In this document: piece by piece, positions 1 through 4,127 of the stretch | Numbering within the stretch: the first letter of the stretch is position 1 | How the letters are laid out: each line of letters opens with the position of its first letter | From: a virus | Lineage: Duplodnaviria; Heunggongvirae; Uroviricota; Caudoviricetes | Length of the DNA: 4,127 nt | Virus record (IMG/VR): IMGVR_UViG_2562617057_000001 | Location: 1 to 4,127 of that record | Reading direction: 5' to 3' (one strand) | Program-made: the position numbers and the translations under genes | Notes under the pieces: generated by a model | Told to the model about the DNA's origin: nothing | What the model saw: only the letters and a program-made list of their open reading frames with translations | Databases searched by the model: none

Positions 1-746
1 ACCGGGATTTTTCCACTGTGCCGCTTCTGTGCGAAGGGGTTGTTCATGCCGTTAACCGATGAGAGATCGATACGACATCGGGTTGTCTGGGAAAGCGCGG
101 CATCAATAAGTAATGGTCGCTGGAGAAAAGCAGCCTCATCCACAAGATAAAGGGTCGTACGGTCACCACGACCGATATTATCGCCAGCCTCACCTTTGAT
201 AACCGCGCCAGTTTCAGGAAACTCAACACGCATATATGGCGCGTGCTTCTTCTCGCTCCACGAACCGCGAAACTCTACAGGTAGTGTTTCCACGAACTTG
301 CGCGCCTTCCAGAACAATGCTTTCGGGTCACCGGTGCTGTCGACGTATTCCTCTTTACGGGAGCCGAAACCGATAACCATTTCTTTGTTGAAGAGACAAA
401 GCGAGCAGGCCAGTCCGATCGCGGTCCAACTGAGCCCCATTTCACGGGATTTATCGGTAATACCATTCTCCCGATTGCTCCAGCGTTCCATAATCCAGTG
501 GATCCACTCCTCCTGCTTAGGGAAGAGTAAAAACGGAATGGTCACCGGCAGGCCATAATCAATATTACGCGGGTCCGTTGTCATGCCCCAGTCGATGATG
601 AACTGAGCCGGATTGGTACGGTAAAACTGTTTTAGTGCAGGCAATATTTCAGGATTCTGGCGAATGCGCTGTAGGCGTTCCATCCGCCATTCAAAAACCA
701 TCTGGTAATCAGGATGTTTAAAATCGAAGGGGAATGGTAACGGCAT
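1..746 (-). CDS. terL: Phage terminase large subunit, N-terminal ATPase portion (partial; 3' end lies beyond window start; codon-aligned 3..746)
   Basis: Not in the ORF track because it has no stop in the window. I translated the minus strand by hand: ATG at 746..744, 248 sense codons with no stop down to position 3 ([20 protein letters not shown]...[11 protein letters not shown]...LYLVDEAAF...[13 protein letters not shown]). Deviant Walker A-like KSREMGLS (approx 432..452) resembles lambda gpA KSARVGYS; Walker B-like LYLVDEAAF at 126..152. Start lies 2 nt after the terS stop (TAA 751..749), the canonical terS-terL coupling. Confidence 0.8.
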
Positions 747-748
747 AC

Positions 749-1303
749 TTAGCCCATCATTTTTCTATACACCTCTGCGGCCTGCTCAGGCGTTAATTTG
801 GTAATTTCTGTTCTGACTGGTCCTCCGTCAGCGCCAGTCACTTCATTTTTGACGTTGTCTTTAAACGCCTGAACAGAAACATGGCGCCCAAGCAACTCAA
901 GGTTTTTAACCTTATCAGGCCATTTGATTTTCTTCAGAAGTGCGGCGCTATCTGCGGATACCATCTCCACGACATCCATTCCTGATAGCGTTGTGCGCCA
1001 TACCTTAGGCCAGTCTTTAATGGGCTTTAGCTCACCGTTTTGCAGGAGAATGTCGAGCACATCCATCTGGTCGATTTCAACCAATCTACGAAGAACATAA
1101 GCGGCATCTATACCTACCTCTTCGTTTCGCTCGGCTTTAAGCTCAGCAATGCGCTTTGCGATATTAGCTTTTATTAGGTTTTTGCATCCTTGTACGGCGG
1201 CAGAATCCTCACTGTAACCCGCCCTGATGGCTGCTTGCGTGGCATTGAGATCTTTCAGGTACTCACGGGCAAACAGCTCTTGTTTGTCGGTGAGCTTTGC
1301 CAT
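749..1303 (-). CDS. terS: Phage terminase small subunit (Terminase_2-type, N-terminal HTH)
   Basis: 184-aa ORF. N-terminus [40 protein letters not shown] matches the conserved terminase small-subunit signature as I recall it (KQExFxxEYlxdxNAtqAaxrAGYS). GGAG Shine-Dalgarno at 1312..1315 (minus strand), 8 nt upstream of ATG 1303. Sits immediately upstream of terL. Confidence 0.85.
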
Positions 1304-1351: not shown

Positions 1352-1376
1352 TGAACCGCCCCGGGAATCCTGGAGA
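1352..1376 (+). repeat. IS left inverted repeat (IRL)
   Basis: TGAACCGCCCCGGGAATCCTGGAGA. The reverse complement of 2637..2661 is TGAACCGCCCCGGGTTTCCTGGAGA, giving 23/25 matches (mismatches at positions 15 and 16). Confidence 0.85.
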
Positions 1377-1405
1377 CTAAACTTCCTGAGAAAGAGGTAA
1401 ACAGG

Positions 1406-1732
1406 ATGACTAAAAATACTCGTTTTTCCCCCGAAGTCCGTCAACGGGCAGTCCGTATGGTTCTGGAAAGTCAGGGCGAATATGACTCACAATGGGCGAC
1501 AATTTGTTCCATTGCTCCAAAGATTGGCTGTACGCCGGAGACTCTGCGTGTCTGGGTTCGCCAGCATGAGCGGGATACCGGGGGCGGTGATGGAGGGCTC
1601 ACCACCGCTGAACGTCAGCGTCTGAAAGAGCTGGAGCGTGAAAATCGTGAACTGCGCCGCAGTAACGATATCCTTCGCCAGGCTTCCGCTTATTTTGCGA
1701 AGGCGGAGTTCGACCGCCTCTGGAAAAAATGA
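1406..1732 (+). CDS. IS3-family transposase OrfA (HTH/leucine-zipper DNA-binding subunit)
   Basis: 108-aa ORF. AGAGG Shine-Dalgarno at 1393..1397, 8 nt before the ATG. Ends WKK* on the A6 run. Heptad-like [20 protein letters not shown] is typical of IS3 OrfA. Confidence 0.9.
1724..1732 (+). promoter_or_regulatory. Putative programmed -1 ribosomal frameshift site (A6 run; orfA stop overlaps orfB ATG)
   Basis: AAAAAA at 1724..1729 occupies the last two Lys codons of orfA. TGA stop at 1730..1732 overlaps ATG 1729..1731 of orfB, which is in the -1 frame. IS3-family elements make an OrfAB fusion transposase by -1 slippage on A-rich heptamers (established for IS911, IS3, IS150). Confidence 0.6.
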
Positions 1733-2619
1733 TGCCACTGCTGGATAAGCTGCGTGAGCAGTACGGGGTCGGACCGCTATGCAGCGAACTGCATATTGCC
1801 CCGTCAACGTATTACCACTGTCAGCAACAGCGACATCATCCGGATAAACGCAGTGCCCGTGCGCAGCGCGATGACTGGCTGAAGAAAGAGATACAGCGCG
1901 TATACGATGAAAATCACAAGGTATACGGTGTGCGTAAAGTCTGGCGTCAGTTGTTACGGGAAGGCATCAGAGTGGCCAGATGCACTGTGGCACGTCTCAT
2001 GGCGGTTATGGGACTTGCCGGTGTTCTCCGGGGTAAAAAGGTCCGTACGACCATCAGCCGGAAAGCCGTTGCCGCAGGCGACCGCGTAAACCGTCAGTTC
2101 GTGGCAGAACGACCTGACCAGCTGTGGGTGGCTGATTTTACTTACGTCAGCACATGGCAGGGCTTCGTCTATGTGGCGTTCATCATTGATGTGTTTGCCG
2201 GATACATCGTGGGGTGGCGGGTCTCATCGTCCATGGAAACGACATTCGTGCTGGATGCACTGGAGCAGGCGTTATGGGCCCGTCGACCGTCCGGCACGGT
2301 CCATCACAGTGATAAAGGTTCTCAGTATGTATCGCTGGCCTACACACAGCGGCTTAAGGAAGCCGGATTACTGGCATCAACAGGAAGTACAGGCGACTCG
2401 TATGACAACGCGATGGCGGAGAGCATCAATGGTCTTTACAAAGCGGAGGTAATACACCGTAAGAGCTGGAAAAACCGTGCAGAAGTGGAACTGGCCACAC
2501 TCACGTGGGTGGACTGGTATAACAATCGACGATTGCTGGAAAGGCTGGGCCATACTCCTCCGGCAGAAGCAGAAAAAGCTTATTATGCTTCCATCGGAAA
2601 CGATGATCTGGCAGCCTGA
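1729..2619 (+). CDS. IS3-family transposase OrfB (DDE integrase/rve catalytic domain)
   Basis: 296-aa ORF in the -1 frame relative to orfA. Catalytic triad read from the translation: D136 (WVADFTY), D195 (HHSDKGSQY), E231 ([12 protein letters not shown]), spacing D-59-D-36-E, the classic DD(35)E pattern. Confidence 0.9.
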
Positions 2620-2636
2620 GTTCACAGATAAAACAC

Positions 2637-2661
2637 TCTCCAGGAAACCCGGGGCGGTTCA
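2637..2661 (-). repeat. IS right inverted repeat (IRR)
   Basis: Reverse complement matches IRL at 23/25 positions; the element ends ...GGTTCA at 2661. Confidence 0.85.
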
Positions 2662-2664
2662 TCC
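2662..2664. repeat. Target-site duplication (TCC), right flank of IS copy 1
   Basis: TCC directly abutting the IS right end, matching TCC at 1349..1351. Confidence 0.7.
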
Positions 2665-2739
2665 CGTGTAGGGTATAAGCCATTATCAAGCCCACCCGTA
2701 GATAGGCTTTGTAATGAAGAGCCGTTGTGAAAGTAGCTC

Positions 2740-2952
2740 TCAGGTTGTCATTTTTTCCCTTTTCTGCCTACCTGCCCACTGTTTTGCAATGTACAGGCAG
2801 TCATCGAAAACTCGGCCTTTTCTGCTGGCTTGTGAACAACGGCGGTAATGCTCCACCGCCATGTCAGCGCCAGTCATAGCCGCGTTCTGGTCGTACCCAA
2901 GCTTTATTAACTCGGTTGTTACATTTTTATGTATGAAATCAATCGGAGTCAT
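2740..2952 (-). CDS. Hypothetical small protein (70 aa), translationally coupled to the upstream Rha-like gene
   Basis: ATG 2952..2950 overlaps the TGA stop (2951..2949) of the upstream ORF, an ATGA overlap. Same strand as the phage genes. I recognise no motif. Only a weak Shine-Dalgarno, so expression probably relies on coupling. Confidence 0.5.
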   Translation of the reverse strand: MTPIDFIHKNVTTELIKLGYDQNAAMTGADMAVEHYRRCSQASRKGRVFDDCLYIAKQWAGRQKREKMTT

Positions 2953-3386
2953 GCTGGTTTACCATCAGAGAAATCCCCCATGTCACATAGCTTGAACTGA
3001 ATCAGATCCTTCACAAGCTGCTCAGCCTTTTTAATGGCCTTCTTCTCTTTCTTCCGACGAGTCATGAGAGCGCTACCTGCTTGACCGTGCATTTCAAATG
3101 AGAACTTCTCAGCAGCCGCGACACGGTTTTGCATTTCGCTGATTGCCATATCGGTCAGGCCAGAGAAATCGAGGAGGTTAATGTCCTTCCCGCCCTCAAG
3201 CTCCGTCATGTGGTCATACACCTGCGCCTGAAGCTCATAGCTGTAGCTCATTGCCATGAGGCAAGCTTCACGCTTGGGAAAATTGCAAATATCCCTCTCC
3301 ACAACACCACCTGTTCCGTTGATATAGGTATCAGTTGCAAAAAATTTTGCAGCTGCATCCCCGAGGACCCTGGGTACTTTCTTCAT
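2949..3386 (-). CDS. Putative phage regulatory/antirepressor-like protein (Rha/Bro-N-like region); possibly the 3' remnant of a gene interrupted by IS copy 2
   Basis: 145-aa ORF from the first ATG. The segment PKREACLMAMSYSYELQAQVYDH resembles the conserved core of Rha/Bro-N/KilA-N-type phage regulator domains (recollection, low certainty). The frame stays open for 33 more codons upstream until it hits the IS junction at 3480/3481, and there is no clear Shine-Dalgarno before ATG 3386. Confidence 0.5.
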   Translation of the reverse strand: MKKVPRVLGDAAAKFFATDTYINGTGGVVERDICNFPKREACLMAMSYSYELQAQVYDHMTELEGGKDINLLDFSGLTDMAISEMQNRVAAAEKFSFEMHGQAGSALMTRRKKEKKAIKKAEQLVKDLIQFKLCDMGDFSDGKPA

Positions 3387-3480
3387 GAAACTGCGGTGTT
3401 CGAGTTTGCGATATTTCTTACAGGGGAACGCAAGCCCCTCCGCCTCCGCTTTGGATTTCCGATCAGCATTAATGTAATCC

Positions 3481-3505
3481 TGAACCGCCCCGGGAATCCT
3501 GGAGA
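3481..3505 (+). repeat. IRL of IS copy 2
   Basis: Identical to 1352..1376. Confidence 0.85.
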
Positions 3506-3534
3506 CTAAACTTCCTGAGAAAGAGGTAAACAGG

Positions 3535-3861
3535 ATGACTAAAAATACTCGTTTTTCCCCCGAAGTCCGTCAACGGGCAGTCCGTATGGTTCTGGAAAGT
3601 CAGGGCGAATATGACTCACAATGGGCGACAATTTGTTCCATTGCTCCAAAGATTGGCTGTACGCCGGAGACTCTGCGTGTCTGGGTTCGCCAGCATGAGC
3701 GGGATACCGGGGGCGGTGATGGAGGGCTCACCACCGCTGAACGTCAGCGTCTGAAAGAGCTGGAGCGTGAAAATCGTGAACTGCGCCGCAGTAACGATAT
3801 CCTTCGCCAGGCTTCCGCTTATTTTGCGAAGGCGGAGTTCGACCGCCTCTGGAAAAAATGA
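3535..3861 (+). CDS. IS3-family transposase OrfA (copy 2)
   Basis: 108-aa product identical to the 1406..1732 product. Confidence 0.9.
3853..3861 (+). promoter_or_regulatory. Putative -1 frameshift site (copy 2)
   Basis: Same A6 run and ATGA overlap as copy 1. Confidence 0.6.
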
Positions 3862-4127
3862 TGCCACTGCTGGATAAGCTGCGTGAGCAGTACGGGGTCG
3901 GACCGCTATGCAGCGAACTGCATATTGCCCCGTCAACGTATTACCACTGTCAGCAACAGCGACATCATCCGGATAAACGCAGTGCCCGTGCGCAGCGCGA
4001 TGACTGGCTGAAGAAAGAGATACAGCGCGTATACGATGAAAATCACAAGGTATACGGTGTGCGTAAAGTCTGGCGTCAGTTGTTACGGGAAGGCATCAGA
4101 GTGGCCAGATGCACTGTGGCACGTCTC
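3858..4127 (+). CDS. IS3-family transposase OrfB (copy 2), N-terminal 90 codons only; continues beyond window
   Basis: In frame with ATG 3858 to the last base of the window ([11 protein letters not shown]...TVARL); identical to the copy 1 orfB 5' region. Confidence 0.85.

Follow-up and report, generated by a model that had tools for sequence, protein, structure and literature searches.

Two independent insertions of one IS3-family (IS629-like) element have very probably isolated an 819-bp segment from the late operon of a lambdoid prophage. The segment occupies positions 2662 to 3480 of the window, by which we mean the whole stretch of DNA analyzed here, 4,127 bp long and identical to the complete shotgun contig AAKB02000002.1 of assembly GCA_000167915.2. 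Within the window, the phage late genes lie on the minus strand and the two insertion sequence (IS) copies lie on the plus strand. The segment is an ordinary piece of decaying lambdoid prophage, and its corrected annotation is one pseudogene, the remnant of a 198-aa Rha-like regulator gene, and one intact small gene of 70 codons, rather than two small genes. The window illustrates the way in which IS elements normally erode a prophage in an Escherichia coli strain rich in them.

Two insertion sequences upstream of the terminase genes

The left end of the window carries terminase genes. The 5′ part of the gene downstream of terS lies at 1 to 746 (minus strand) and runs off the window. A family search with this part gave no match; it is collinear with a 539-aa gene that sits between terS and the portal gene in the related loci L001 and L008, and from its position alone it is probably the large terminase subunit gene. 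The adjoining 184-aa gene at 749 to 1303 (minus strand) encodes the small terminase subunit, matching Pfam Terminase_2 (E = 3.5e-37) and phrog_51 (E = 6.9e-50). A preliminary description of this DNA had placed the 819-bp segment between two IS copies and at the accessory position just upstream of the terminase genes. Both placements hold: the copies lie at 1352 to 2661 and from 3481 onward, with identical sequences over 647 bases, and the segment belongs between the lysis genes and the Terminase_2 gene.

IS copy 1 (1352 to 2661, plus strand) is 1,310 bp long and is bounded by 25-nt imperfect terminal inverted repeats. Its orfA carries the Pfam domain HTH_Tnp_1 and its orfB carries HTH_21, rve, and rve_3. 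At the orfA/orfB overlap of both copies, Rfam identified the ALIL frameshift pseudoknot (RF01497, 120 bits), at 1687 to 1803 and at 3816 to 3932. In IS3-family elements, this pseudoknot serves as the signal for programmed −1 frameshifting. These IS pseudoknots were all that the Rfam scan detected, and segment 2662 to 3480 gave no match. The first 647 bp of IS copy 2 lie at 3481 to 4127 (plus strand), where the copy runs off the window; it is in direct orientation with respect to copy 1 and is identical to it across all 647 shared bases (1352 to 1998). The terminal inverted repeats, a 3-bp target duplication, orfA (HTH) with orfB (rve), and the frameshift signal place the element in the IS3 family, which is the level that the searches establish. 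From its length and end sequences we take it to be close to IS629, with which it would share the length of 1,310 bp, the 25-nt imperfect repeats, the 3-bp target duplication, and the arrangement of orfA and orfB with a frameshift pseudoknot.

In a three-way alignment, the DNA to the left of IS copy 1 joined the segment seamlessly in the uninterrupted prophage. The trinucleotide TCC occurs once in that prophage and flanks both sides of IS copy 1 in the window, at 1349 to 1351 on the left and 2662 to 2664 on the right. Copy 1 thus entered by simple insertion, duplicating 3 bp of its target, and the segment was not brought in by transposition. The insertion fell in the noncoding stretch between the 70-aa gene and terS. 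The far side of IS copy 2, where a 3-bp duplication and the remaining 65 nt of the interrupted gene would be expected, is outside the window. Similar target sequences directly precede both insertions, at 1338 to 1351 (TTAAGTTATCC) and 3467 to 3480 (TTAATGTAATCC), and the motif common to the two sites, TTAA-N-GT-N-ATCC, points to a target preference of the IS element.

The contig is short, complete in the window, and ends inside the repeat formed by IS copy 2, and neither IS junction was present in 5,426 complete E. coli genomes, in the GTDB species representatives, or in the related loci that we retrieved. One might therefore suspect that the double-IS arrangement is an assembly artifact. However, each junction coincides exactly with the IS terminal repeat, a clean target duplication flanks copy 1, and the two sites share a target motif, as expected for real insertions of one element. 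Moreover, a different IS3-family insertion lies at another position in the same Rha-like gene in L013 (L013:6141-8004; GCA_900457135.1), showing that such insertions are common in IS-rich strains. We consider an artifact quite improbable. The related prophages L007, L010, and L013 are riddled with IS elements.

Two conserved genes and their products

The stop codon of the Rha-like frame overlaps the start codon of the 70-aa gene (2740 to 2952, minus strand) in the sequence ATGA at 2949 to 2952. The same 4-nt overlap is kept in L002, L004, and L005, which comprise E. coli prophages and Erwinia phage Midgardsormr38, and its conservation suggests translational coupling. Differences from the Midgardsormr38 pair number 27, 22, and 100 at the first, second, and third codon positions of the large gene and 22, 18, and 44 at those of the small gene. 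This third-position bias, together with the conservation of both genes and dN/dS values of 0.17 to 0.24 against close E. coli relatives, indicates that both genes are real and under purifying selection.

Relatives of the intact 198-aa protein form 1,867 clusters at E ≤ 0.001 and are found across Enterobacterales; those at 60 to 89% identity have a near-constant length of about 180 to 223 aa, mostly 194 to 207 aa. Searches of Pfam and NCBIfam with the 198-aa protein gave no match even at E ≤ 1, and Pfam likewise gave none for the truncated form. Pfam PF09669 (Phage_pRha) was matched by 28 of 52 relatives at 25 to 28 bits (best E = 4.2e-6 to 6.7e-6), in every case below the gathering threshold of 29.9 bits. 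Many relatives are named "Rha family transcriptional regulator" by NCBI, and the phage homologs are annotated as Ant, antirepressor, or Roi. The intact protein also matches phrog_26415, phrog_63 (Ant, E = 5.1e-11), and phrog_4936 (transcriptional regulator, E = 7.2e-11), the latter two over the N-terminal 118 to 141 residues only.

An AlphaFold (AF2) model of the 198-aa protein (mean pLDDT, 74.8) has, at about residues 16 to 117, two helices, a two-stranded hairpin, and two further helices, and its C-terminal part consists of two long helices at residues 128 to 153 and 161 to 186. A fold search with the model returned weak, nonsignificant matches that included the winged-helix regulators PadR, AphA, and TFE and the DnaD N-domain. 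Based on the PHROG matches, the subthreshold Phage_pRha matches, the NCBI names, and the AF2 model, we assign the protein to the Bro/KilA-N/Rha/Ant domain-shuffling network, as a Rha-like member that has diverged. The domains of the Bro network have been described (PMC10111431). The protein is thus Rha-like by resemblance while falling outside formal Pfam membership, and the Rha/antirepressor-like label previously given to the larger open reading frame (ORF) stands as a statement of resemblance. A motif match to the pLS20 repressor Rco (PDB 8BNY; E = 0.27) was rejected as a sign of a p53-like tetramerization domain: the match covers Rco residues 89 to 118, and the domain covers residues 125 to 159.

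The 70-aa product had been taken for an orphan, which it is not. It matches the phrog_4439 profile with an E value of 1.3e-34, residues 1 to 69 aligning with positions 1 to 69 of 74, and is an ordinary full-length member of this PHROG family, which has no assigned function. We found 385 clusters of homologous proteins and matches in 169 phage records; one cluster of the 70-aa protein bears the name of E. coli 53638. The AF2 model (pLDDT, 84.7) has helices at residues 3 to 18, 22 to 39, and 45 to 68, and the C-terminal tail is rich in Lys and Arg, so that the protein is predicted to be a three-helix bundle with a basic tail. Conserved family residues that the 70-aa protein carries include F6, L15, G19, Y36, R38, D50, and C52; D51 is conserved as well, and these positions flank a basic loop, YRRxSQxSRKG. 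No solved structure, Pfam family, or characterized protein was found to resemble it.

Several candidate relatives of the 70-aa protein were discarded. A likeness to RMF (ribosome modulation factor), seen in 2 of 58 family members (Pfam E = 0.027; 15 bits against a cutoff of 27.9), was treated as chance, the hhalign probability against E. coli RMF being 0.2%. PPR/TPR-like matches, to a synthetic PPR protein (E = 0.042) and an 801-aa repeat protein, P0264, were put down to summed weak matches to repetitive helical proteins. Comparisons with P22 orf80 (DUF2560), P22 orf59c, and the 85-aa KilA partner of phage 2851 revealed no homology.

In other phages, the phrog_4439 gene occupies early regions and has no Rha-like neighbor. 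In a Proteus phage, it comes after a gene for a CII-like activator; in Yersinia phage YeP1, after an RdgC-like gene; and in Salmonella phage ST44, after an HNH endonuclease gene, with a 40-aa ORF between. Judging from these contexts, the small gene stands on its own in phages, and it is only in the present cassette that it is coupled to a Rha-like gene.

This solo occurrence also weighs on another reading of the intact pair, as a two-component toxin-antitoxin, defense, or counterdefense system. Such a system would fit a small two-gene unit with an overlapping stop and start, located in a variable slot with exchanging cassettes, and the rha genes of P22 and phi80 do harm phage growth in IHF-deficient hosts (PMC4936722). 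Yet the 70-aa gene family, found without its partner beside CII-like, RdgC, or HNH genes, is not an obligate companion of the Rha-like gene, and neither protein has an enzyme-like or toxin-like domain in family, motif, and fold searches. That the pair is a system of this kind is, in our judgment, very improbable. The suggestion that the pair is the likeliest uncharacterized thing in the window is valid in the weak sense that both families are without demonstrated function; there was no sign of a new system. The sequences and the kinds of element are already known, and genes identical or nearly identical to these are present in many sequenced genomes.

The interrupted gene and its separation from the late operon

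E. coli CFSAN029787 carries an uninterrupted prophage with which segment 2662 to 3480 is collinear, the two being 99.9% identical over the full length of the segment. There, the intact counterpart of the interrupted gene is the 198-aa gene at L001:9288-9884 (minus strand). The window retains the last 532 nt of this 597-nt coding sequence (2949 to 3480, minus strand; codons 22 to 198), and IS copy 2 therefore lies inside codon 22. Over 176 codons the remnant is 99.8% identical to the intact gene, with a single amino acid difference, Pro193 to Ser. The cut removes the first 21 codons and 2 nt, including the start codon, together with the ribosome-binding site, and with them the conserved residues T15, M16, S18, and E20.

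The 145-aa ORF at 2949 to 3386 (minus strand) is an internal part of the Rha-like gene, running from Met54 to the stop codon. No stop codon interrupts this frame before the IS boundary at 3480, beyond which it remains open into the IS. The ATG at 3386, which encodes the internal Met54, is the first in-frame ATG, GTG, or TTG past the IS boundary, and no Shine-Dalgarno sequence lies ahead of it. The remnant could thus yield at most a 145-aa fragment starting at Met54, with half of the N-terminal domain gone. In the annotation of AAKB02000002.1, the 145-aa ORF is called and the 70-aa gene appears only as a 45-aa piece. In L007, L008, and L010 (positions 7234 to 8004), the gene upstream of an identical 70-aa gene is called as 256 aa rather than 198 aa, which may reflect a longer N-terminal variant or a different start call.

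IS copy 2, a 1.3-kb element transcribed in the opposite direction, now stands between the remnant and the 70-aa gene on one side and the late promoter and lysis genes on the other. A search of 2600 to 3540 revealed no sigma-70-like promoter on either strand, and the terminator-like sites in this interval are located solely inside the IS end or inside coding sequence, so the region has neither the promoter nor the terminator of its own that would mark a moron. Since the second IS cuts the Rha-like gene, the pair cannot work as a pair here. Judging from the sequence, we infer that the module in the window is nonfunctional prophage debris, dead or crippled.

The window had previously been described as holding two coupled small genes. 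Of this description, the ATGA overlap holds, and the 70-aa gene is indeed complete; the larger ORF turns out to be a fragment of the 198-aa gene. If both genes were whole, they might be working accessory ("moron") cargo that is still active in the prophage, a reading favored by the conservation of the overlap, the intact 70-aa gene, and a slot that is a known accessory position. But with the first 21 codons and 2 nt, the start codon, and the ribosome-binding site of the Rha-like gene missing, 1.3 kb of IS between the pair and the late promoter and lysis genes, and no sigma-70-like promoter on either strand from 2600 to 3540, we regard this as highly improbable. The chance that the two IS copies and the 819 bp form a composite transposon carrying a segment from elsewhere, as identical copies in direct orientation around a short segment might suggest, is close to nil, because copy 1 alone bears its own 3-bp duplication, TCC, because the DNA to the left, the segment, and the frame at copy 2 match the uninterrupted prophage order base for base, and because genome searches found the IS-segment-IS unit at no unrelated locus. 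The duplication at copy 1 and the base-for-base agreement instead argue for two separate simple insertions into resident DNA.

The post-lysis slot and its known occupants

In intact phages, the gene order is holin, lysozyme, Rz, the 198-aa Rha-like gene, the 70-aa gene, and the terminase genes, all on one strand. The pair follows Rz in every prophage or phage context examined, and it precedes at least four unrelated packaging modules, namely, Terminase_2, lambda-type Nu1/GpA, DUF1441/GpA, and a P22-like PBSX terminase. The pair also lies after Rz/Rz1 in Erwinia phage Midgardsormr38, with its 4-nt overlap preserved. An alternative cassette is found after Rz in Stx phage 2851 (L019:2557-3308) and in phage PhiR49_1 (L021:2557-3308).

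Two noncoding features accompany the slot. Directly after the stop codon of the small gene comes an element of about 75 nt, which in the window occupies 2662 to 2727 of the intergenic stretch after the small ORF (2662 to 2739, minus strand) and resumes at about 1330 to 1351, to the left of IS copy 1. IS copy 1 was thus inserted inside this conserved element and split it. The element is also present at L019:2480-2575, L021:2480-2575, and L020:1532-1592, and in the alignment two unrelated small genes each have it directly behind their stop codon. Matches to bases 1 to 55/66 of the segment came from 580 of 5,426 complete E. coli genomes and 45 phage records, and all of them fell in DNA without annotation; the phages with the element include Stx phages, P22-like phages, and others. 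The element contains a hairpin, AAGCC(C/T)A-N8-TGGGCTT, with no T-run behind it. Conceivably, it serves as a recombination linker, an RNA element, or a binding site.

The second feature is a terminator-like hairpin, GCCTCGC-GAT-GCGGGGC followed by T5, located immediately behind Rz and ahead of whichever gene comes next, be it Rha-like, KilA-N, or rha (L001:9885-10086, which corresponds to DNA outside the window, beyond IS copy 2; L019:3309-3510; L018:39426-39574). E. coli prophages, Stx phage 2851, and P22 share this conserved hairpin, and Midgardsormr38 has a different stem at this position after Rz. A terminator-like hairpin at this place suggests that only antiterminated late transcripts extend into the cassette.

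For intact phages, we propose that the 198-aa and 70-aa pair would be transcribed late, from the Q-antiterminated transcript. The 198-aa protein would be a DNA-binding regulator or an antirepressor-type protein of the Bro/Rha/KilA-N network. Its predicted winged-helix-like domain (about residues 16 to 117) might contact DNA or a repressor-type partner, and the helical hairpin modeled at residues 128 to 186 might serve in oligomerization or partner binding. By analogy with the rha genes of P22 and phi80, the protein may not be needed for lytic growth. We picture the 70-aa product as small, helical, basic, and mobile independently of the Rha-like protein, with which it would be cotranslated in this cassette; as a guess, it may bind nucleic acid or an acidic partner.

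A broader scheme would have the post-lysis slot of lambdoid phages hold interchangeable two-gene cassettes, each consisting of a Bro-network DNA-binding protein (Rha-like in the present case, KilA-N/ORF11CD3 in Stx phages) and a coupled small basic protein, bounded by the same conserved noncoding elements and forming one functional class with a shared, undescribed role late in infection, the phrog_4439 protein acting as effector or modulator. We think it unlikely that this scheme is correct. If the class is real, its shared role could lie in cross talk with other prophages or in triggering or blocking host defense. The window is in any case a reminder that Rha-like proteins and small proteins of the post-lysis slot are conserved across Enterobacterales and yet are without demonstrated function, and what remains of interest are the roles of the Rha-like and phrog_4439 proteins and the cassette-like organization of the slot.

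The closest positional parallel is the rha gene of P22 (orf201) and phi80, which likewise sits directly after Rz/Rz1 and before the small terminase gene. In a P22-like case, the order is Rz, 198-aa gene, 67-aa gene, DUF2560 gene, and terminase, and in P22 it is Rz, rha, orf25, orf80 (encoding the DUF2560 protein), orf59c, and gene 3; the pair therefore occupies the rha slot. In phi80 and P22, rha belongs to the late operon, and its product prevents phage growth in hosts that lack IHF (PMC4936722, citing Mozola and Friedman, 1985, and Henthorn and Friedman, 1995). The 198-aa protein and P22 Rha (201 aa) are of similar length, and both have an N-terminal domain of a DNA-binding type followed by a short helical C-terminal part, as predicted here for the 198-aa protein. 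Their sequences showed no similarity (BLASTP E = 2.0; hhalign probability, 0.4%). Whereas the P22 protein combines Phage_pRha with ORF11CD3, the 198-aa protein is without ORF11CD3 and falls below the Pfam gathering score, and the Rha-like gene in the window, unlike P22 rha, is cut by an IS.

The parallel in organization is with Stx phage 2851 and phage PhiR49_1, in which the slot holds genes for a KilA-N/ORF11CD3 protein of 165 aa and a phrog_875 protein of 85 aa. Neither of these proteins is detectably homologous to its counterpart in the window. The two arrangements nevertheless have in common the slot itself, the 4-nt overlap, a small partner with a basic tail, the noncoding element after the small gene, and the terminator-like hairpin after Rz. 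As far as can be told from their sequences, the Rha-like/phrog_4439 and KilA-N/phrog_875 pairs are alternative cassettes and not relatives.
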